Under the pieces are notes generated by a model. It saw nothing but the letters and a program-made list of their open reading frames with translations. It did not search any database and was not told the DNA's origin. Shown piece after piece: positions 2,022-58,395 of a stretch of DNA of 64,000 nt (position 1 is the first letter of the stretch; every line of letters starts with the position of its first letter). The stretch is from a phage. Where the stretch lies: sequence record QB031383.1; one strand, given 5' to 3'. A program made the translations under genes and the position numbers.

Positions 2022-2584
2022 TGGGTTGTTTTAGCTTTTTGTGCAAAGAATCGGGCAAAGCTGCCCTTTCTACTTCTTTCGACGGATCACCTTGTTATCT
2101 CTTTCTTTTGAAGGACGGTGTTGTTATTGAAGAGATGTATGGCAACTATGATAGTTATGGTTGTGTTTTCTCTGGAAAGGAGGATGAAAACGGCGTTCGT
2201 GAACGGTTCGAATGGGCTATGGATTGGGGTAAGGTTTGTGATTTGATGCATTCCTCAAATCCAAGGGACGGTATCGCTATGGTGCTGGAAGAGTACTTTA
2301 CAGGTGAAATCCCTACAGAACAATCTGACGGAGATCCTAACCAAGGTTGGGGTGATGGTGAAGAAGATCCAGATTGTTTTTTCAGCACAGAAAAGAATAA
2401 GTTTAAACGTGTTGACAACCCTTATCACAAAGTGCATAATACTCTCATTGAAACAGAAGATGACAAGATGGAAATTGAAGAAGATGATCCTCTTGTAACA
2501 CTTCCTATAAGTGAGTTACAAAAGATCACTAAGGAAGCTTACGATTTGGGCTTCAAAATTGGTAGAGGAGGTATGCGTGTTTAG
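2021..2584 (+). CDS. hypothetical protein
   Basis: 187 aa ORF; GAAGGAGG RBS immediately upstream; no recognisable motifs. Confidence 0.5.
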   Translation: MGCFSFLCKESGKAALSTSFDGSPCYLFLLKDGVVIEEMYGNYDSYGCVFSGKEDENGVRERFEWAMDWGKVCDLMHSSNPRDGIAMVLEEYFTGEIPTEQSDGDPNQGWGDGEEDPDCFFSTEKNKFKRVDNPYHKVHNTLIETEDDKMEIEEDDPLVTLPISELQKITKEAYDLGFKIGRGGMRV

Positions 2585-2855
2585 ATTCAATATTCAAGAA
2601 GAAAAAAGTCAGGATTTACCTATTGCTTTCGAAGATCTTGACGTAGGGGCCACATTCATGTATTATGATGCCTATGAAGACGCAGGGTTGGATACCTACC
2701 GTAACTTGGTGTTCATTAAAAATTCCACAAACAGTGCGATTTGTATTAATGGATCACTAGCACAACGAGGCTATACTCATTGCATCCCACCAGATACAAA
2801 TATGGTGGAAGTAGATTTAGAAGTTACCAATATTACACTTAAGAAGGAGAAATAA
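2577..2855 (+). CDS. small protein, paralog A of a duplicated pair
   Basis: GTG start 7 nt after GGAGG; 92 aa; clear similarity to the 3877-4146 product (..DLDVG.TF.Y..A.DE.GLD.. / ..VE.LEVT.ITLK). Confidence 0.5.
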   Translation: MFRFNIQEEKSQDLPIAFEDLDVGATFMYYDAYEDAGLDTYRNLVFIKNSTNSAICINGSLAQRGYTHCIPPDTNMVEVDLEVTNITLKKEK

Positions 2856-2856
2856 T

Positions 2857-3651
2857 ATGTCCGAGAAAATCAGCCTGAAAAAACGTCAAGAAAACCTTGC
2901 TTTCTCTCTGAAAAAGAATAAGAACCTGAATGAAGGTAAGATTGTTCTTCGTGTAGCATGTGCTCTAGATATTTCTGGTAGTATGCATGGTCTATATTCT
3001 AGTGGGGTAGTGAGTGATTTTGTAGGTAAACTGCTTCCTTTTGGTATGCTGTTCGACGATAATCAACAAATTGATATGTGGGCCTTCAATACGAGTTCCC
3101 AAGAGCTTACTCCAGCAACAGCAGATGTTTACGATGACTATGTTGGTAAATGTATGCGTAATGTTCGTATCGGAGGTGGAACAAATTACGCCCCTGTAAT
3201 GGCGGATATCTACGATGAGTATTTTGGCACTGTTACTAAATATATTACCACTAAACAAGTGGTACAAGAGGAGGCTCCAAAGAAAGGCTTCTTTAATCGT
3301 CTGCTTGGTAAAACTGAAACAGTGTCTGTAGAGCGTGAAAAAGTTGTAGCTGTATCTGAACCAGGTGCTGACGTTACCCCTGGTGTTGTATTCTTCCAGA
3401 CGGATGGTGAGAATGGTGATCCTAGTGCTGTTCGTCGTCTTATCGAAGAGAATAAGAATAAACCTATTTATTGGTTCATGGTTGGCGTTGGTAATGAGAA
3501 GTTTGGCTTCCTGAAAGAACTGGCAAATGCTTATGATAATGTTGGTTTTATTGGCATTAAAGATTTAGACTTGACAGATTCAGAGCTTTATGACAAACTC
3601 TTATCTGAAGAGTTCGGAGAGTGGGTTGTTAAAGTAGGTGCTAAAAAATGA
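2857..3651 (+). CDS. vWA domain protein with TerD-like N-terminal start (TerF C-terminal-type vWA)
   Basis: MIDAS motifs present (DISGSM, GGGTNYAPVM, FFQTDGEN); N-terminus MSEKISLKK resembles the TerD-like gene at 4162. Confidence 0.6.
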   Translation: MSEKISLKKRQENLAFSLKKNKNLNEGKIVLRVACALDISGSMHGLYSSGVVSDFVGKLLPFGMLFDDNQQIDMWAFNTSSQELTPATADVYDDYVGKCMRNVRIGGGTNYAPVMADIYDEYFGTVTKYITTKQVVQEEAPKKGFFNRLLGKTETVSVEREKVVAVSEPGADVTPGVVFFQTDGENGDPSAVRRLIEENKNKPIYWFMVGVGNEKFGFLKELANAYDNVGFIGIKDLDLTDSELYDKLLSEEFGEWVVKVGAKK

Positions 3652-3896
3652 TCGACGAGCTTGCCTCTCAAGTCATAGAAAATTATTGGCGCGAGAGAGA
3701 AGCTTTCATTATGCGCAGTCTCAAAGAGTATTTCATTGGGACTGTGCGAATGGAAGATATTGTAAGTAGAGTAGAGATTCATGTATGGCCTGATTATGAA
3801 GAATGGGTTGACAAAGAAAATGAAAATGCTATAATTCTTCGTATATACAAACCGGAGATAACATTAGGAGGAAGAAGTGTTAAACTTCGAAATTGA
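3648..3896 (+). CDS. hypothetical protein
   Basis: 82 aa ORF, start overlaps upstream stop (ATGA). Confidence 0.45.
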   Translation: MIDELASQVIENYWREREAFIMRSLKEYFIGTVRMEDIVSRVEIHVWPDYEEWVDKENENAIILRIYKPEITLGGRSVKLRN

Positions 3897-4146
3897 TGAG
3901 CAAAAAGTAAATAAACGATGCCTTACCATTAAAGATTTGGATGTAGGAGATACTTTCGTCTATGAAAATGCATTTGACGAAAATGGTTTAGACCTTAGTG
4001 AAATCATTGTTTATTTAAAAGTAGATGATGGGGAAAATGATTATTCTGCTGTAGAACTAAACCATCATGCACAATTAGTATCAATCCAAAACACATCTAA
4101 GCTTTTGGAAGTAGAATTGACTGTAACTGGTATTACACTTAAATAA
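3877..4146 (+). CDS. small protein, paralog B of the duplicated pair
   Basis: GTG start after GGAGG; 89 aa; paralogous to 2577-2855. Confidence 0.5.
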   Translation: MLNFEIDEQKVNKRCLTIKDLDVGDTFVYENAFDENGLDLSEIIVYLKVDDGENDYSAVELNHHAQLVSIQNTSKLLEVELTVTGITLK

Positions 4147-4161
4147 TAGAGGAGACAAAAG

Positions 4162-4764
4162 ATGACTGATAAAATTTCCCTGAAAAAAGGCTCTAGCGAA
4201 AAAATTTCCCTGAAGAAAGTTGCTCCGGCTCTGAAAGAACTGCGCCTGGAATTCTCTTGGAAATCTGATTCTAAACTGGATCTGGATGTAAGTGCACTGG
4301 TTTGTCGTCACAATGCCGCTGGCAATCCTGAAATGCTGTCTGCACGTCATCTGGTTTGCTATGCTAACAAGTTTGATCCTGAACGTTCTACCTTCGCTGG
4401 TGACGATGTTCGTGATGGAACTGGCAGCATGGAGCAGATTGATATTACTCTGGCTAAAATCTCTCCTGATGCACAAGAGATTGCCTTTGTTCTGACCATT
4501 GATGATGATACAGGTCTGAAACGTTTTGGTCATGCTTCTGAAGGTATGCTTAAAATCTTCGACTCCGAGCGCAATGTGGAAATTCTGGATTTTGACTTCC
4601 TGGCTCCTGAAGTAGCTGGCAACACAATCTGCCACGTGGCTTCCTTGGTTCGTGAAGATGGGGAATGGAAGCTGAAAGCATATGGTGTAGGTAAAGCTGG
4701 TCTGGATATTTGTGATGTGGTGATGGCCTTCGGTGGTAAAAAAGAATGGTATGAATGTCCATAA
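4162..4764 (+). CDS. terD: TerD-domain stress response protein
   Basis: 200 aa; TerD-like features (N-terminal KISLKKG repeats, LDLDVSALV, GDD..DG acidic Ca-binding-type motifs); strong RBS GAGGAG. Confidence 0.65.
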   Translation: MTDKISLKKGSSEKISLKKVAPALKELRLEFSWKSDSKLDLDVSALVCRHNAAGNPEMLSARHLVCYANKFDPERSTFAGDDVRDGTGSMEQIDITLAKISPDAQEIAFVLTIDDDTGLKRFGHASEGMLKIFDSERNVEILDFDFLAPEVAGNTICHVASLVREDGEWKLKAYGVGKAGLDICDVVMAFGGKKEWYECP

Positions 4765-4782
4765 TAATTAACAAATGATTTT

Positions 4783-4806
4783 GAGGGGGAGAAATCCCCC
4801 TCTTGC
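4783..4806 (+). terminator. stem-loop GAGGGGGA-GAAA-TCCCCCTC after the TerD-like gene (weak U-tract)
   Basis: 8-bp GC-rich perfect stem read directly; T-tract downstream is short, so efficiency uncertain. Confidence 0.45.
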
Positions 4807-4831
4807 AATAAAGCCTCTATCGTGTTATACT
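4803..4831 (+). promoter_or_regulatory. sigma70-like promoter (TTGCAA-17-TATACT)
   Basis: -35 TTGCAA at 4803-4808, -10 TATACT at 4826-4831, upstream of the 4864 gene. Confidence 0.5.
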
Positions 4832-4863: not shown

Positions 4864-5385
4864 TTGCTGATAAAAAACTTTGTAACAGTTGCGTTACTAT
4901 CCTTAACTGCTTTTACATTTACACCTGTTGTGGCGAAAGCCGAAGCTGCAAACGTAAAAACCGCTAAAGTAGTTCACAAATGTACAAAGCAATATAATGA
5001 TAAAATTCTATTAGCTTGTGCAATTTACGCAGAAGGTCGAGGTCTGGGTAAAAAAGGAATGAATGCCGTTGGGAATGTGGTAATCAACAGACGAAATGAT
5101 ACCTACTTCCCTAACACAGTCAGAGGAGTCTTGTTCCAGAAAGGGCAATTCTCATATGCGAAAACTTTTAACGTAACAGAGAAAGATAAGTGGCAGGAAG
5201 CAAAAGCAATAGCGGAGCGTTTACTTTATTTAGAGAAACATTTTCCTGAATTGCGGTCTGTTTTAGATGTTACTAAAGGTGCCCTATACTTCAAGAAACG
5301 GAATATAAGGACAAACTGGGAACGTGATATGCGTCTTGTTTATCGAGATAAAGTGCATGGTTTCTATCTACCAAAGGGGAGTTAA
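4864..5385 (+). CDS. secreted cell wall hydrolase, SleB-like (Hydrolase_2 family); candidate endolysin
   Basis: TTG start after AAAGGAGG; N-terminal signal/SAR-like hydrophobic segment ending AKAEA; SleB-like motifs CAIYAEGRG, VVINRRND, VLFQKGQFSY. Confidence 0.6.
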   Translation: MLIKNFVTVALLSLTAFTFTPVVAKAEAANVKTAKVVHKCTKQYNDKILLACAIYAEGRGLGKKGMNAVGNVVINRRNDTYFPNTVRGVLFQKGQFSYAKTFNVTEKDKWQEAKAIAERLLYLEKHFPELRSVLDVTKGALYFKKRNIRTNWERDMRLVYRDKVHGFYLPKGS

Positions 5386-6658: not shown

Positions 6659-7342
6659 ATGGAAAATATTAAAATCGGAGTGGGTGTTATCACTGTAGGT
6701 GTCCGTCCGCTTAAAGACTACCTTGTAACAGATCCACGTGCAGATTTTCGAGTATTCAACGATCCAGATCGTAAAGGTGTAGCTTATGCCAGGAATGAAC
6801 TTATGCACCAGTTTTATGAAGAAGGTTATGATTATTGGTTTATTTTTGACGACGATTGCTACCCAGTCATGGAGGGATGGGAAACATATTTTGTAGATCA
6901 AGCTGTCTCTGGAGGATGGGATTTCTTTGGTATGCCGGAGTACTTCAAAGATAAAGTTGTTGGAAGCAAAGGAGAAGTTATTCTCTGGGAACTTGCAATG
7001 TGTCAATTTGCAATGTATTCTCGTGCCGTTGTTGAAAAGATGGGTTATTTCCGTCCTTACACTCACGGTTATGGTTTTGAAGATGCTGAATGGGGACACC
7101 GTTTACAAGCTGCTGGTTTGAATCATGGTATTCAGGCAACACCTTGTCCACTTCGTATCATGGCTTATATCCACCCAGACGATGTTTTTGGCAACAATCC
7201 TATGCCTTTTGCTAACCTGACAAAAGAAGAGAAAGAAGCTGCTATTGGGATTAACTGGGAAGAATATAAAGCATCTTTAGAGGATATTAAAAATGGGAAA
7301 ATCCGAATTTCCTATGAGGAGGCACTAGCACATGTCAAATAA
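6659..7342 (+). CDS. putative glycosyltransferase (GT-A fold, DXD motif)
   Basis: 227 aa; acidic DXD motif WFIFDDDCYP typical of nucleotide-sugar transferases. Confidence 0.5.
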   Translation: MENIKIGVGVITVGVRPLKDYLVTDPRADFRVFNDPDRKGVAYARNELMHQFYEEGYDYWFIFDDDCYPVMEGWETYFVDQAVSGGWDFFGMPEYFKDKVVGSKGEVILWELAMCQFAMYSRAVVEKMGYFRPYTHGYGFEDAEWGHRLQAAGLNHGIQATPCPLRIMAYIHPDDVFGNNPMPFANLTKEEKEAAIGINWEEYKASLEDIKNGKIRISYEEALAHVK

Positions 7343-8279
7343 AAAATGGTCTAAACTAAAAATTGATGCAAAACCTCACAGCGGTTGTGACTATCATCGT
7401 ATTGTTATACCATTTAACAACAATAATATTCAACCTAAGAAAGATGTTGTTGTGTTTAACCGTATCCACTCTAAAGGTGCAGAATACGTTTTATCTTTGA
7501 AACGCCAAGGTGTTAAGATTGTTGTAGACTTAGATGATTTTTACCAACTTAATCCAGAGCATTATTTGGCAAGTTTATACGAGTCAAACACTCATGCTAT
7601 TGTGGCTATGGTTAAGCTTGCTGATGTGGTTATTGTGACTACGGAATACTTGGCATATAAGATCCGTCACTTAAATAGGAATGTTGTTGTGATCCGAAAT
7701 GCACTTCCTTTTGATAGTGGACAATTCACTTTGTCAAATGATCGTTCATCCGGTACCCCTGTTGTATGGGCTGGCGGTGCTAGTCACGAACCCGATTTAC
7801 GACTAGTCTCTAATACTTTCGATGATGAACTTCTTACTATTGCGGGATATGAAGCATCGCAGAGCATCACGGGACAAGAGTGGATTAAGATTCGCAGAAA
7901 TTTACCAAATGCCAAATATAAAGCTGCTGTAAAAGATTTAGATAATTACATGAGTGTTTACGAAAGTCATGCTATTGCTATAGCTCCTTTGGTAGATAAT
8001 GATTTTAATAATTGCAAAAGTAATCTCAAAATCCTGGAAGCTGGGGCAAAAGGTATTCCGATTGTTTGTTCTAAGGTGTTACCTTATTTTAACCCTGTAG
8101 ATGCTCGTGCTGTTGCTTACGCAGAGAATAAAGCAGAATGGCATTACGAAATTGTTAAGCTTCTTCGCAATCCAAACTATCGGGAAGATCGTGGCTTGTT
8201 CTTGGCTGAACATGTTCGAACACATTATAATCTGGCAGATGCAAATGAGTTGCGACGCCAGGTTATTGAAAGTTTGTAG
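7332..8279 (+). CDS. glycosyltransferase-like protein, tandem paralog 1 (possible GT-B C-terminal motif)
   Basis: 315 aa; paralogous to 8287-9231 (CDYHRIVIPF / CDFHRVVLPY; SNLKILEAGAKGIPIVCS / SNLKILEAGAKGLPLICS). Confidence 0.45.
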   Translation: MSNKKWSKLKIDAKPHSGCDYHRIVIPFNNNNIQPKKDVVVFNRIHSKGAEYVLSLKRQGVKIVVDLDDFYQLNPEHYLASLYESNTHAIVAMVKLADVVIVTTEYLAYKIRHLNRNVVVIRNALPFDSGQFTLSNDRSSGTPVVWAGGASHEPDLRLVSNTFDDELLTIAGYEASQSITGQEWIKIRRNLPNAKYKAAVKDLDNYMSVYESHAIAIAPLVDNDFNNCKSNLKILEAGAKGIPIVCSKVLPYFNPVDARAVAYAENKAEWHYEIVKLLRNPNYREDRGLFLAEHVRTHYNLADANELRRQVIESL

Positions 8280-8286
8280 GTGAAGT

Positions 8287-9231
8287 ATGGGACAAATAAT
8301 TCTTGACAATCGTAACGGAATCAATTATAGTGTCTGCGATTTCCATAGGGTAGTGCTGCCTTACTCAAGGCAGTTCTCTTCACAACCTAAACACAACGTT
8401 TTCGTTTTTAACGGAGTGCCAACAAAAGGTAAAGAGGGCTTTTTAGCCCTTAAAAACCTAGGCTTTAAAATGGTTATGGATTTGGATGACTCTTTAGTTA
8501 TTCCAAAAGGACACATGTTAGAAGGTATTTTTGAATCAGGTATTCGTGAACATTTAAAATGGTTTTTAGAGCACAGTGATCTTGTTACAACTACGACACC
8601 TGCCTTGCAAGTTGAACTTTCACAATACAATGATAATGTGCACATAATCCCTAATGGACTTCCTTACGATGAAGGTCAATTTGTGTTGACCCGTGATCGC
8701 TACTCCAAAACTCCATTAGTCTGGGCTGGAAGTGAAACACATAAACAAGATTTGGCTATCTTGCCCGATTTTGGTAAAGATCTTACAATATGTGGTTTTC
8801 GTAGGGATTCTGAAGTTTTAAGTAGTCGTGAATGGTCTGTAATCAGGGAAAATGTAGCACCAACTTGTGTTTATGAAGGTGTAAGACCATATGCCAACTA
8901 CATGGAATCTTACGATGGTCATCAAATCAGTCTTGCGCCATTGATTGATAACGTGTTTAATAATGCAAAAAGCAATCTTAAAATTCTTGAGGCAGGTGCT
9001 AAGGGTTTACCTTTGATCTGTTCTCCTCGTGAGAATTATCATACACAAGAGTTTAAAGATCTGTTATTCTTTGCTGAAACACCTTCCGAGTGGAAAGATA
9101 TTACGGAATACTTATTAAGTGCTCCCGATGTTTGCATGGAGAAAGGATTAGCATTAGCTAAGTATGTCAGGACTCATTATCACATTGATGTGTTGAATGA
9201 GCGTCGTAGACTTTTATTTGAGGAGCTATAA
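8287..9231 (+). CDS. glycosyltransferase-like protein, tandem paralog 2
   Basis: 314 aa; same length and conserved blocks as 7332-8279. Confidence 0.45.
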   Translation: MGQIILDNRNGINYSVCDFHRVVLPYSRQFSSQPKHNVFVFNGVPTKGKEGFLALKNLGFKMVMDLDDSLVIPKGHMLEGIFESGIREHLKWFLEHSDLVTTTTPALQVELSQYNDNVHIIPNGLPYDEGQFVLTRDRYSKTPLVWAGSETHKQDLAILPDFGKDLTICGFRRDSEVLSSREWSVIRENVAPTCVYEGVRPYANYMESYDGHQISLAPLIDNVFNNAKSNLKILEAGAKGLPLICSPRENYHTQEFKDLLFFAETPSEWKDITEYLLSAPDVCMEKGLALAKYVRTHYHIDVLNERRRLLFEEL

Positions 9232-56471: not shown

Positions 56472-56550
56472 TGGAGGCGGGAATCGGATTTGAACCGATG
56501 ATCTCCAGCATATGAAACTGGCGAGGACGACCAGACTCCTCTATCCCGCT
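56472..56550 (-). tRNA. tRNA-Met (anticodon CAT)
   Basis: Hand-folded cloverleaf: T-arm ATCGG-TTCAAAT-CCGAT, anticodon loop TTCATAT, CCA encoded; 1-72 position appears mismatched (A/C). Confidence 0.55.
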
Positions 56551-56552
56551 AT

Positions 56553-56627
56553 TATGTATCCCGTGCTGGATTCGAACCAGCATCACAATAAGCTGTGGAA
56601 CTCTTATCCTGTAAGTCTAACGGGAAA
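56553..56627 (-). ncRNA. tRNA-like element, anticodon arm not resolvable (possible pseudo-tRNA)
   Basis: Canonical T-arm GCTGG-TTCGAAT-CCAGC and 6-bp acceptor, packed between two tRNAs, but no standard D/anticodon arms. Confidence 0.3.
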
Positions 56628-56628
56628 C

Positions 56629-56702
56629 TGGTTGTTTCGACAAGAATCGAACTTGTGTCTCACGATTATCAGTCGTGGGTTCTACCATTGAACTACGAAA
56701 CA
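56629..56702 (-). tRNA. tRNA-Ile (anticodon GAT)
   Basis: Acceptor TGTTTCG/CGAAACA, D-arm GTTC-AATGGTA-GAAC, anticodon stem CACGA/TCGTG with loop CTGATAA, T-loop TTCGATT, CCA encoded. Confidence 0.7.
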
Positions 56703-56708
56703 TTTGAT

Positions 56709-56785
56709 TGGTCGGAATTGCAGGATTCGAACCTGCGACCCTACGCTCCCAAAGCGTATGCTCTACCAAACTGAGCTAAATTCCG
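56709..56785 (-). tRNA. tRNA-Pro (anticodon TGG)
   Basis: Acceptor CGGAATT/AATTCCG, D-arm GCTC-AGTTTGGTA-GAGC, anticodon loop TTTGGGA, T-arm GCAGG-TTCGAAT-CCTGC, CCA encoded. Confidence 0.75.
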
Positions 56786-56790
56786 TTATA

Positions 56791-56866
56791 TGGCTGGTCT
56801 GTCTGGATTTGAACCAAACCTACGACAGTCAAAGTGTCGTGTGCTACCGGACTACACTACAAACCA
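56791..56866 (-). tRNA. tRNA-Gln (anticodon TTG)
   Basis: Acceptor with U1-A72, anticodon stem CGACA/TGTCG with loop CTTTGAC, T-loop TTCAAAT, discriminator G, CCA encoded. Confidence 0.7.
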
Positions 56867-56964
56867 ATAAATCATTTAATGAAGGGCAACCAGAAGAGGT
56901 GTGAGAGAAGGAGAAAACCATGAGTAAAAGAGAAAGTTTTCTGGCAACCCTTTATTAAATAATT

Positions 56965-57038
56965 TGGAGCGTTCTACGAGGATCGAACTCGTGCCGCCGA
57001 CTTGGAAGGACGGAATGCTACCGCTACACCAAGAACGC
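56965..57038 (-). tRNA. tRNA-Gly (anticodon TCC)
   Basis: Acceptor GCGTTCT/AGAACGC, anticodon loop CTTCCAA, T-arm ACGAG-TTCGATC-CTCGT, discriminator U, CCA encoded. Confidence 0.6.
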
Positions 57039-57049
57039 CCTACATCTTT

Positions 57050-57079
57050 ACTATACTACATTTTACTATTGGTTGTCAA
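57050..57079 (-). promoter_or_regulatory. promoter-like element (aCTATTGACAa, -10-like TATAGT) directly upstream of tRNA-Gly
   Basis: Minus strand TTGACA-18-TATAGT; one of four copies of the same -35-containing motif. Confidence 0.5.
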
Positions 57080-57352
57080 TAGTTTTATTGAGCGGGACAG
57101 TGACGAGTATCCCATTGGGTGACTAGCCCTACGTTCGGTAAGCTAACTTAAAATAATACAAAACCAAAGTCAAATATTATTCTTCGTTGCTGTCGATGGG
57201 AGAGCCGCTTCTTCTTTTGCCCCATCCAACCCTACTCCGGTCAAGTTTCAGGTAACTCTTTTTGTGATCAACACAATACTAAGAACACTGTCTTTCGAGC
57301 AGACCTTGTGCACAGGATACGACGATCAATCACAGTGCTCTTAATGTTGTGT

Positions 57353-57427
57353 TGGTGCTCCCACTCTGAATCGAACAGAGATCCACGGATTACAAAACCG
57401 TTGTAATAGCCATTATACTATAGGAGC
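57353..57427 (-). tRNA. tRNA-Thr (anticodon TGT)
   Basis: Acceptor GCTCCTA/TGGGAGC (one G-U), anticodon loop TTTGTAA, T-arm CTCTG-TTCGATT-CAGAG, CCA encoded. Confidence 0.6.
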
Positions 57428-57433
57428 AAAGCT

Positions 57434-57511
57434 GGGACTCGGCAGGATTCGATACCTGCAATTCCAGAAGCCTCTTGGCGACTGGGGGGTTTACCTTAAC
57501 TCTACAAGTCC
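57434..57511 (-). ncRNA. tRNA-like element with 8-nt T-loop and no recognisable anticodon arm (possible pseudo-tRNA)
   Basis: 7-bp acceptor GGACTTG/CGAGTCC and T-arm GCAGG-TATCGAAT-CCTGC; internal region forms a long imperfect hairpin instead. Confidence 0.3.
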
Positions 57512-57518
57512 ATAATTC

Positions 57519-57604
57519 TGGCGATGAGTATAGGATTTGAACCTATATCGTTCTTTCGAACACGGATTAACAGTCCGCCGCTTAAACCATTCAGCCAACT
57601 CATC
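57519..57604 (-). tRNA. tRNA-Asn (anticodon GTT) with an unusually long variable arm
   Basis: Perfect acceptor GATGAGT/ACTCATC, Asn-type anticodon arm GCGGA-CTGTTAA-TCCGT, discriminator G, CCA encoded; 15-nt variable region GTTC-GAAA-GAAC. Confidence 0.55.
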
Positions 57605-57610
57605 TTAATT

Positions 57611-57698
57611 TGGTGGTGAGTGATGGAGTCGAACCACCCGAATCGCAATGATAACAGATTTACAGTCTGCCCCGCTACCCCTACGGAATTAACTCACC
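57611..57698 (-). tRNA. tRNA-Tyr (anticodon GTA), type II
   Basis: Acceptor GGTGAGT/ACTCACC, anticodon arm GCAGA-CTGTAAA-TCTGT, long variable arm, T-loop TTCGACT, CCA encoded. Confidence 0.65.
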
Positions 57699-57828
57699 TA
57701 AATACTAATATTTAAATTCTTTTTAAAATAGCCAGTGTTCACACCACTAACTATGAGTTATCGGTAAAGTGGTTACCGCCACTTGCCGAAGATTTACTCT
57801 GCTAAAGTAAGCTATATTAAAAAGAACT

Positions 57829-57914
57829 TGGCGGTAGATGTAGGACTCGAACCTACACGCCGTTTCCGACTACAGTTTAGCAAACTGTCGTGGCTACCAT
57901 TTCACCAATCTACC
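57829..57914 (-). tRNA. tRNA-Ser (anticodon GCT), type II
   Basis: Acceptor GGTAGAT/ATCTACC, anticodon stem ACAGT/ACTGT with loop TTGCTAA, long variable arm, T-arm GTAGG-TTCGAGT-CCTAC, CCA encoded. Confidence 0.7.
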
Positions 57915-57918
57915 AATC

Positions 57919-58009
57919 TGGCGGAAGGAGGGAGAGTCGAACTCCCAAGGCTCTTTCAAGCTCGGCGGTTTTCAAGACCGTTTTCGTCGCCACGTCGATT
58001 TGCCCTTCC
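57919..58009 (-). tRNA. tRNA-Ser (anticodon TGA), type II
   Basis: Acceptor GGAAGGG/TCCTTCC, anticodon loop CTTGAAA, long variable arm, T-arm GGGAG-TTCGACT-CTCCC, CCA encoded; D-arm atypical. Confidence 0.55.
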
Positions 58010-58018
58010 ATACTTATA

Positions 58019-58047
58019 ATCTAACATAAAATAATGTTAGTTGTCAA
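58019..58047 (-). promoter_or_regulatory. promoter-like element (aCTATTGACAa, -10-like TTAGAT) upstream of tRNA-Ser
   Basis: Minus strand TTGACA-17-TTAGAT; shares the TATG-TTAG block with the 58605 copy. Confidence 0.5.
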
Positions 58048-58243
58048 TAGTTTTTTAAAACATTTTACCATGAATGGTGACTCCACCAACCCCCGTTCTC
58101 AACGAACGGTGCTCTTCGAGCATTTATGTCTTCTAATATAACCGTGGCCTTTGTTTATAATGTCTGACATACTTGCCTCATTCTCTGCCACCATGATCAG
58201 TAGTGGGTTCAAATCACTTGAGCTAATTCATGTTAAAATGTTC

Positions 58244-58318
58244 TGGTGTCTTTACAAGGAATCGAACCTTGACTAAGAGTTTAGAAGACTCCTGTGCTAT
58301 CCATTACACCATAAAGAC
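58244..58318 (-). tRNA. tRNA-Arg (anticodon TCT)
   Basis: Acceptor GTCTTTA/TAAAGAC, D-arm GTGT-AATGGATA-GCAC, anticodon loop CTTCTAA, T-arm CAAGG-TTCGATT-CCTTG, CCA encoded. Confidence 0.7.
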
Positions 58319-58320
58319 GT

Positions 58321-58395
58321 TGGTGGCCCTGGCTGGTTTCGATCCAGCTACCTATCGGTTATGAGCCGACAGCTCTCCCATTGAGCTACAGGGCC
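58321..58395 (-). tRNA. tRNA with CAT anticodon (Met or lysidine-type Ile2)
   Basis: Acceptor GGCCCTG/CAGGGCC, D-arm GCTC-AATGGGA-GAGC, anticodon loop CTCATAA, non-canonical T-loop ATCGAAA, CCA encoded. Confidence 0.6.

Follow-up and report, generated by a model that had tools for sequence, protein, structure and literature searches.

Two small acidic paralogous genes, S1 and S2, are embedded in a Ter-like cluster of an E. coli phage, the first directly 5' of a vWA-TerF-like gene and the second directly 5' of a TerD gene. The interpretation favoured here, which we regard as probable, is that of a Ter-cluster locus in which an old duplication involved S only, S2 and TerD form a separate unit, and the S proteins serve as accessories of the vWA and TerD proteins. 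The whole stretch of DNA analysed (the window; 64,000 nucleotides (nt), sequence record QB031383.1) belongs to a phAPEC8-like E. coli myovirus of the genus Phapecoctavirus and shows 99% DNA identity to Phapecoctavirus genomes. Its first 6 kb are 98-99% identical to many of them (phAPEC8, SKA64, vB_Ec-G1 and others), which are ~150-kb E. coli myoviruses of the Stephanstirmvirinae. Positions 2577-4764 correspond to the distal part of the known cluster, whose order is TerC, SprT-like, TelA, S1, vWA, a gene encoding 82 amino acids (aa), S2 and TerD. This region had been described in an original prediction as the tandem duplication of a two-gene cassette, formed by a small gene and the gene downstream of it, followed by domain divergence. 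The paralogy of the small genes and their tight linkage to Ter-family genes were upheld, but a common origin of vWA and TerD by duplication was not.

S1 (2577-2855, + strand) encodes a 92-aa protein with an isoelectric point (pI) of 4.4, and S2 (3877-4146, + strand) an 89-aa protein with a pI of 4.3. Pairwise alignment of both proteins extended from end to end with 34% identity (E 2e-14), and each of them matched the phrog_11278 profile over its full length (4.2e-51 for S1 and 7e-45 for S2), which confirms that they are clear paralogs, as had been predicted. The two sequence blocks reported to be shared by them, DLDVG.TF and VE.LEVT.ITLK, were found in both proteins in the forms DLDVG(A/D)TF and (V/L)EV(D/E)L(E/T)VT(N/G)ITLK. 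Initiation of both genes with GTG was also borne out, each start being located 5-6 nt 3' of a GGAGG sequence. Relatives of S begin with ATG, indicating that the GTG start is not a trait of the family. No third copy of S was found in the window. The 82-aa gene was considered as a degenerate S copy or as a fragment of the 187-aa gene located upstream of S1, and was rejected as either: BLASTP returned nothing and the hhalign probability to S was 0.2%. The 187-aa gene is likewise unrelated by BLASTP to the 82-aa gene and to S.

The AlphaFold2 (AF2) model of S1 is a confident small barrel with five strands and one helix (predicted local distance difference test (pLDDT) score of 84.6), and it superimposes on the BFVD model of the phAPEC8 S2 with a template modelling (TM) score of 0.81-0.83. 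The fold predicted for the family is a putative SH3-like small beta-barrel, of the kind represented by the C-terminal domain of ribosomal protein L2, FeoA, the C-terminal domain of DtxR/IdeR, KOW and Tudor. The structural neighbours of the S model in BFVD are uncharacterised small phage proteins. Conserved positions of the family include F4, L21, G24, F27, G37-L38-D39, N58 and the C-terminal V-x-L-x-V strand. Between the window and phiWec190 the identity is 53% for S1 and 43% for S2, against 73% for vWA and 90.5% for TerD, showing that S evolves faster than the neighbouring genes. No function or context is annotated for phrog_11278; its linkage to vWA and TerD and its predicted fold are new additions.

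The vWA and TerD domains that had been proposed for the genes downstream of S1 and S2 were recovered by Pfam. The vWA-TerF-like gene (2857-3651, + strand; 264 aa) matched PF10138 with 130.1 bits (cut-off 29.4) in two stretches separated by a long insertion. Its metal ion-dependent adhesion site (MIDAS) is intact (D38-x-S40-x-S42, T109, D183), and these five residues are invariant across 32 vWA homologs. The AF2 model is an alternating beta/alpha fold (pLDDT 89.5), for which Foldseek retrieved integrin I-domains and the vWA domains of BON1 (copine) and RGLG with E values of about 1e-5; several vWA homologs have a Pfam Copine match as well. The insertion that splits the Pfam match (residues 125-169; 3237-3365) is predicted to be a long beta-hairpin with a nearly invariant GF(F/L)xKLFGK motif (G144, F145, G151), but homologs with a total length of 232-234 aa (P0063, P0064 and P0068 among them) have a far shorter version of it. 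The TerD-domain gene (4162-4764, + strand; 200 aa), which is strongly codon-adapted, matched PF02342 with 98.9 bits (cut-off 25.3), residues 5-179 aligning to profile positions 3-177. It also aligned to the solved Streptomyces and Klebsiella TerD structures (3ibz/2kxt), with E values of 1.5e-15 for 2kxt and 2.9e-14 for 3ibz. Residues D40, D42, G80, D82, V83, R84, D85, G86 and T112-I113-D114 are invariant in 10 phage TerD proteins; the acidic ones among them are presumably located at the Ca2+ sites.

The cassette reading had been based in part on the N-terminus (S/T)(E/D)KISLKK of the product encoded after each small gene, and this feature is present. The vWA product begins with MSEKISLKKRQENLAFSLKK (start MSEKISLKK) and the TerD product with MTDKISLKKGSSEKISLKK, both of them carrying KISLKK. 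The vWA element, ISLKKRQENLAFSLKK (residues 5-20; 2869-2916, + strand), lies outside the Pfam vWA model, the match to which begins at residue 31; the double motif of TerD, ISLKKGSSEKISLKK (residues 5-19; 4174-4218, + strand), is part of the TerD domain. Among the 191 open reading frames (ORFs) of the window that reach 60 aa or more, the pattern [ILVM]xLxK-x3-8-[ILVMF]xLxK was encountered in two, exactly vWA and TerD, which argues that the resemblance is not due to chance. The likeness of the two N-termini is therefore real, but it ends by ~22 residues: BLASTP similarity between vWA and TerD is limited to this N-terminal segment, and comparison of the two family profiles with hhalign (probability 44%, E 2.3e-4) covered 22 columns at the N-terminus only.

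These KISLKK-type N-termini are old elements intrinsic to each family. Residues L7, K9, L18 and K20 of vWA are invariant or nearly so in the 32 vWA-TerF-like proteins, bacterial ones included, and an hSLxK motif occurs in the linker of TerD-vWA fusions, where it is doubled in P0081 and P0084. The TerD motif aligns to VSLSKGG--NVSLSK of the Klebsiella TerD and to positions 3-48 of the TerD profile. Both N-termini are kept in phi92 and Klebsiella phage 05F01, which have one S each, and in Citrobacter phage Tr1, which has none. In TerD the motif aligns to the N-terminal segment of the solved domain, which forms the first strands of the beta-sandwich; in the AF2 model of vWA residues 7-20 are helical, and the alternating hydrophobic pattern of the motif would also suit a hairpin. 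The likeness between the vWA and TerD motifs may reflect either homology or convergence.

A tandem duplication of the small gene together with its downstream gene, with the downstream copies diverging into vWA and TerD while the N-terminus was kept, would agree with the paralogy of S1 and S2 and with the position of each S just 5' of a gene beginning with (S/T)(E/D)KISLKK. It would also agree with an 83-nt stretch (the 3' end of S, the ribosome-binding site and the 5' end of the downstream gene) over which the two junctions share 70% identity (E 3e-6). This similarity, however, is limited to conserved residues and the ribosome-binding site and is explained by coding constraint. Homology along the length was found for S1 and S2 only; vWA and TerD have unrelated folds, and the bacterial homologs of each already carry the motif, which is present in phages with one S or none rather than having arisen with the duplication. 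In the identical octapeptide SEKISLKK (vWA residues 2-9, TerD residues 12-19) five of the eight codons differ, including serine switches between TCC and AGC, indicating that no recent exchange of DNA took place. The supposed tandem is moreover broken by the 82-aa gene (3648-3896), which lies between vWA and S2 and has no relationship to S, vWA, TerD or the 187-aa gene. Nor are the two paralogs closest relatives, since S1 and S2 appeared as sisters in 15% of the bootstraps, as compared with 91% for S1 and the S of phi92. We consider this history extremely improbable, and the duplicated unit was the S gene alone.

The distribution of S was analysed in two large protein collections. A search of 5.8 billion proteins yielded 22 clusters, and a profile search of 1.84 billion representatives gave 20 hits, 17 of them of 87-93 aa. 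Two further hits are short, P0022 (55 aa), which matches the C-terminal third of the profile only, and P0020, a 54-aa N-terminal fragment; P0096, with 1191 aa, was discarded as a false positive because it is an FN3-repeat protein. Neither search detected an S-like protein in bacteria, and a tblastn search of isolated phages with the divergent member P0092 found nothing. In isolated-phage records S was present in 127, as against 210 for the vWA-TerF-like gene. The S family is thus tiny and known only from Stephanstirmvirinae-like phages and metagenomic relatives.

In all readable contexts S stands before vWA, between vWA and TerD, or in both positions. The order S-vWA-TerD was found in phi92 and 05F01, and vWA-S-TerD in five loci (L010, L011, L012, L018 and L019); in L009 the contig begins at S and reads S-TerD. 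Two S genes are adjacent in the order vWA-S-S-TerD in L013 and L015, and L014 shows the S-S-TerD end only. The arrangement of the window, S-vWA-82aa-S-TerD, is shared by L004, L006 and L016, and its vWA-82aa-S-TerD part is seen in L017, the contig of which begins just before vWA. The order vWA-TerD without S was found in Citrobacter phage Tr1 (L020, 2501-3969), also of the Stephanstirmvirinae, whose vWA is 67% identical to that of the window and is preceded by a 53-aa ORF. Comparison of 05F01 with L019 revealed orthologous genes (55% identity) on the upstream side of the module, with S nevertheless located on opposite sides of vWA.

A second family of small acidic proteins (X, 110-116 aa), unrelated to S, fills these two slots in phages that are more distant. 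In the distant loci L007 and L008, the small genes that flank vWA were tested as S homologs by hmmsearch --max and rejected (E > 0.3); they belong to this separate family, the members of which are encoded at L007:3653-3985, L008:4744-5094 and L021:2648-2980. The L008 member is 27-30% identical to the other two (E 5e-10 between L007 and L008), and that of L007 is 88% identical to the FBKp34 member. X precedes vWA in L007 and FBKp34; in L008 its place is between vWA and TerD. From these data X looks like a non-homologous replacement of S.

In order to establish the age of the duplication, a tree of S was built by neighbour joining (100 bootstraps, ~90 aligned positions). The highest support was obtained for the 05F01-type clade (100%) and for a clade of S1 that includes the S of phi92 and excludes S2 (91%); the S2 clade reached 67% and the S1+Kp grouping 55%, and the two tandem S copies of L015 were sisters in just 4% of the bootstraps. 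Since S1 groups with the phi92 S and leaves S2 out, the paralogs predate the split between Phapecoctavirus and Justusliebigvirus. The history of S is in keeping with an old duplication of a single gene and subsequent differential loss.

It may alternatively be proposed that S1 alone was copied recently and specifically in Phapecoctavirus, and that the copy entered the interval between vWA and TerD along with the 82-aa gene or next to it, S2 having then diverged so fast that a long-branch artefact places it deep in the tree. The weak deep nodes of the neighbour-joining tree and the fast evolution of the S genes would allow this, and among isolated phages both slots are filled in Phapecoctavirus only. 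The spacer between vWA and TerD in phi92 is clean (72 nt) and contains no remnant of S2 or of the 82-aa gene, which is consistent with a recent insertion, although for the same reason the direction of the S2/82-aa indel cannot be polarised from the sequence. The 91% bootstrap for S1 with the phi92 S, S2 being left out, points in the opposite direction, as does the fact that S2 is just 43% identical between two Phapecoctavirus lineages. Several metagenomic relatives, in addition, have S in the pre-TerD slot only, or two non-sister S genes there, and the opposite positions of S in 05F01 and L019 beside an orthologous upstream gene fit duplication and reciprocal loss. Recent copying is accordingly regarded as rather unlikely, and the old duplication of S is preferred.

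S2 and TerD are predicted to form a transcription unit of their own. Within the 3' part of the 82-aa gene there is a consensus sigma-70 promoter (3808-3835, + strand; TTGACA-16-TATAAT, 12/12 match) with an extended -10 (TGnTATAAT), located 41 nt 5' of the S2 start. Its hexamers and the TG are identical in three Phapecoctavirus-like lineages, whereas the 82-aa proteins are just ~60% identical, and its spacing is unchanged despite an adjacent 3-nt indel. Promoter-like sites directly 5' of TerD, between vWA and TerD, were also seen in phi92 and Tr1, and FBKp34 has an annotated promoter in that position; in L015 and L008 a promoter-like site precedes the S-TerD and the X-TerD pair, respectively. 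Just 3' of TerD a GC-rich hairpin, GAGGGGGA-GAAA-TCCCCCTC (4783-4802, + strand), is likely to mark the end of the unit. The 66-nt stretch containing it (4765-4830) has a folding energy of -18.5 kcal/mol (z -3.1); a scan for consensus terminators did not call the hairpin, since it lacks a T-run.

Two further promoter-like sites lie upstream of or within S1. A sigma-70-like site (2412-2440, + strand; TTGACA-17-CATAAT, 11/12), located 137 nt 5' of S1, is kept in phi92 and phiWec190; its function as a promoter is uncertain because it falls within a conserved coding stretch. The site at 2638-2666 (+ strand; TTGACG-17-TATTAT, 10/12, and 11/12 in L016) overlaps the conserved DLDVG...MYY block of S1 and also occurs in phi92; either an internal promoter of vWA or a coincidence due to coding constraint could account for it.

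Codon usage differs sharply between the two genes of the S2-TerD pair. TerD uses CTG for 17 of its 19 leucines and CGT/CGC for all eight arginines (GC 0.444), which suggests very high expression, whereas S2 has no CTG among 12 leucine codons, a GC content (0.311) below that of every other gene in the cluster, and a GTG start. S1 likewise has CTG in 0 of 7 leucine codons, and the glycosyltransferase genes found elsewhere in the window have 1-3 CTG among 11-36. The coupling of S to the gene downstream is close: the TAA stop of S1 lies 1 nt before the ATG of vWA, the ribosome-binding site of which (AAGGAG) is contained in the last S1 codons, being encoded by the K-E-K tail of the S proteins that precede vWA. 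The distance from the S stop to the downstream start is 1-15 nt in the window and up to ~35 nt in relatives. S2-TerD would thus be an early unit transcribed by the host RNA polymerase, giving abundant TerD and little S2 in view of the GTG start and non-adapted codons of S2 as opposed to the codon adaptation of TerD.

The likeliest role of S is that of a dispensable, low-abundance, lineage-specific accessory of the phage vWA/TerD module. This is suggested by its strict linkage to the module despite relocation, the translational coupling, the low predicted expression, the fast evolution and the fact that Tr1 lacks it. S is more likely to be a substoichiometric adaptor or regulator than a folding chaperone, and an obligatory chaperone is unlikely because Tr1 does without S. 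For the phage Ter-like module, a function at the membrane in excluding superinfection or in handling stress has been proposed earlier, and the S proteins would bind the vWA and/or TerD proteins and tune this module. The near-invariant G-L-D loop of S, as an acidic ligand for the vWA MIDAS site, is a candidate contact. A more specific model, in which the hSLxK double N-terminus is a common interaction handle and the S proteins are co-translationally coupled adaptors for this handle or for the MIDAS face, S1 serving vWA and S2 serving TerD, is put forward as a very doubtful one. If true, Ter systems would include a step of assembly or regulation that had not been recognised before.

The main rival on the function of S holds that S1 and S2 are functionally unlinked to vWA and TerD, as fast-evolving accessory ORFs inherited in permissive junctions of a syntenic early-gene block. 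Several points speak for it and weigh against an accessory role or against other parts of the favoured interpretation. Neither Tr1 nor any of the more distant Ter clusters of phages and bacteria contains S, which the module therefore does not need. The slots of S are filled in other phages by unrelated small genes, X and the 82-aa gene, which means that the linkage may have been inherited vertically within the one phage subfamily (with its metagenomic relatives) to which the family is confined. Pfam, NCBIfam and PADLOC, in addition, gave no match for S. The promoter and the hairpin are sequence predictions only, and the S tree is a neighbour-joining tree of ~90 columns with weak deep nodes. 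Against independent small ORFs, on the other hand, stands the observation that slot and copy number vary and yet S touches vWA and/or TerD in every readable context, coupled at 1-35 nt to the gene downstream, and that S2 lies inside the promoter-to-hairpin unit of TerD. That the unrelated X family behaves in the same way with respect to the two slots suggests that these are functionally meaningful. On balance a functionally unlinked S is considered unlikely, and the accessory role is retained.

Ter systems (TerD, TerC, TelA and TerF-type vWA proteins) are widespread and have been linked to resistance to phages, colicins and tellurite, although their mechanism is unsolved. In bacterial terZABCDEF, TerF combines a TerD domain with a C-terminal vWA, and the hxLxK double motif precedes vWA in such fusions. 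The vWA of the window is of this TerF C-terminal type, but vWA and TerD are encoded by separate genes instead of being fused as in the bacterial TerD-TerF proteins. The TerD of the window aligns to Klebsiella TerD (PDB 2kxt) over residues 5-183. The vWA model and profile also match the vWA domains of copines and RGLG/BON1, and there is an analogy in that a Ca2+-binding beta-sandwich is paired with a MIDAS vWA; these eukaryotic proteins, however, are single chains with no small partner, and their C2 domains have no sequence relation to TerD. Abbreviated phage-borne Ter clusters (jumbo and large phages, Klebsiella phage phiKp34) have the same four Ter-family components in one rightward block. 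The phiKp34/FBKp34 cluster also resembles the window in having a promoter between vWA and TerD, but contains the unrelated X protein and two TerD genes in place of S. Phage-borne sets of TerC, TerF-type vWA, TerD and TelA have been described previously, and a role in the superinfection exclusion of rival phages or in stress tolerance has been proposed for them (PMC7824862; PMC8386662). The S family is unmentioned in these descriptions, whereas in the window and its relatives vWA and TerD are accompanied by one or two interspersed S genes.

Taken by itself, the locus is ordinary, being an old duplication of one gene in a phage genus that is already well sequenced. The gain in annotation is modest; useful new details are the range of the S family, its predicted fold, the predicted transcription unit and the family-wide motif. 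A family that occurs beside phage vWA/TerD genes only, and that has been duplicated, moved or lost among close relatives, nevertheless offers a concrete starting point for interaction and deletion studies in E. coli phages that are tractable, such as phAPEC8 and phi92. The N-terminal motif of TerD and vWA and the separate S2-TerD unit, with its predicted strong expression, are further testable leads.

The remaining genes of the region agree with the rightward block annotated in Phapecoctavirus records, which comprises a TerC-family membrane protein, SprT-like, TelA, several small ORFs, vWA-TerF-like, TerD and an SleB-like hydrolase. Pfam matches in the window were TelA (151-1263), vWA-TerF-like (2857-3651), TerD (4162-4764) and Hydrolase_2 (4864-5385). 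The TelA-like gene (151-1263, + strand) is an upstream member of the cluster (PF05816, 115.7 bits; phrog_5890, 'tellurite resistance'); in related phages the TerC gene lies ~2-3 kb further upstream of it, a position beyond the edge of the window. The 187-aa gene (2021-2584, + strand; phrog_14928, function unknown) overlaps the start of S1 with its last 8 nt. The 82-aa gene (3648-3896, + strand; phrog_22387) is specific to Phapecoctavirus-like phages. Neither the 82-aa nor the 187-aa protein, like S1 and S2, had any match in Pfam, NCBIfam or PADLOC, and PADLOC-DB gave no match at E <= 0.01 for the TelA, 187-aa, S1, vWA, 82-aa, S2 or TerD proteins. An extra 200-aa gene, gp171, lies between TerD and the hydrolase in phi92 (L003, 6288-6890), and none is annotated there in the Phapecoctavirus gene order; in L007 this position is taken by a 207-aa gene.

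Elsewhere in the window, a genuine tandem duplication was found in two adjacent GT1-type glycosyltransferase genes (7332-8279 and 8287-9231, + strand), which are 41% identical (E 9e-78). The window also contains a group of 10 tRNA genes (56472-58395, - strand), with the specificities Met (two genes), Ile, Pro, Gln, Gly, Thr, Asn, Ser and Arg(tct).

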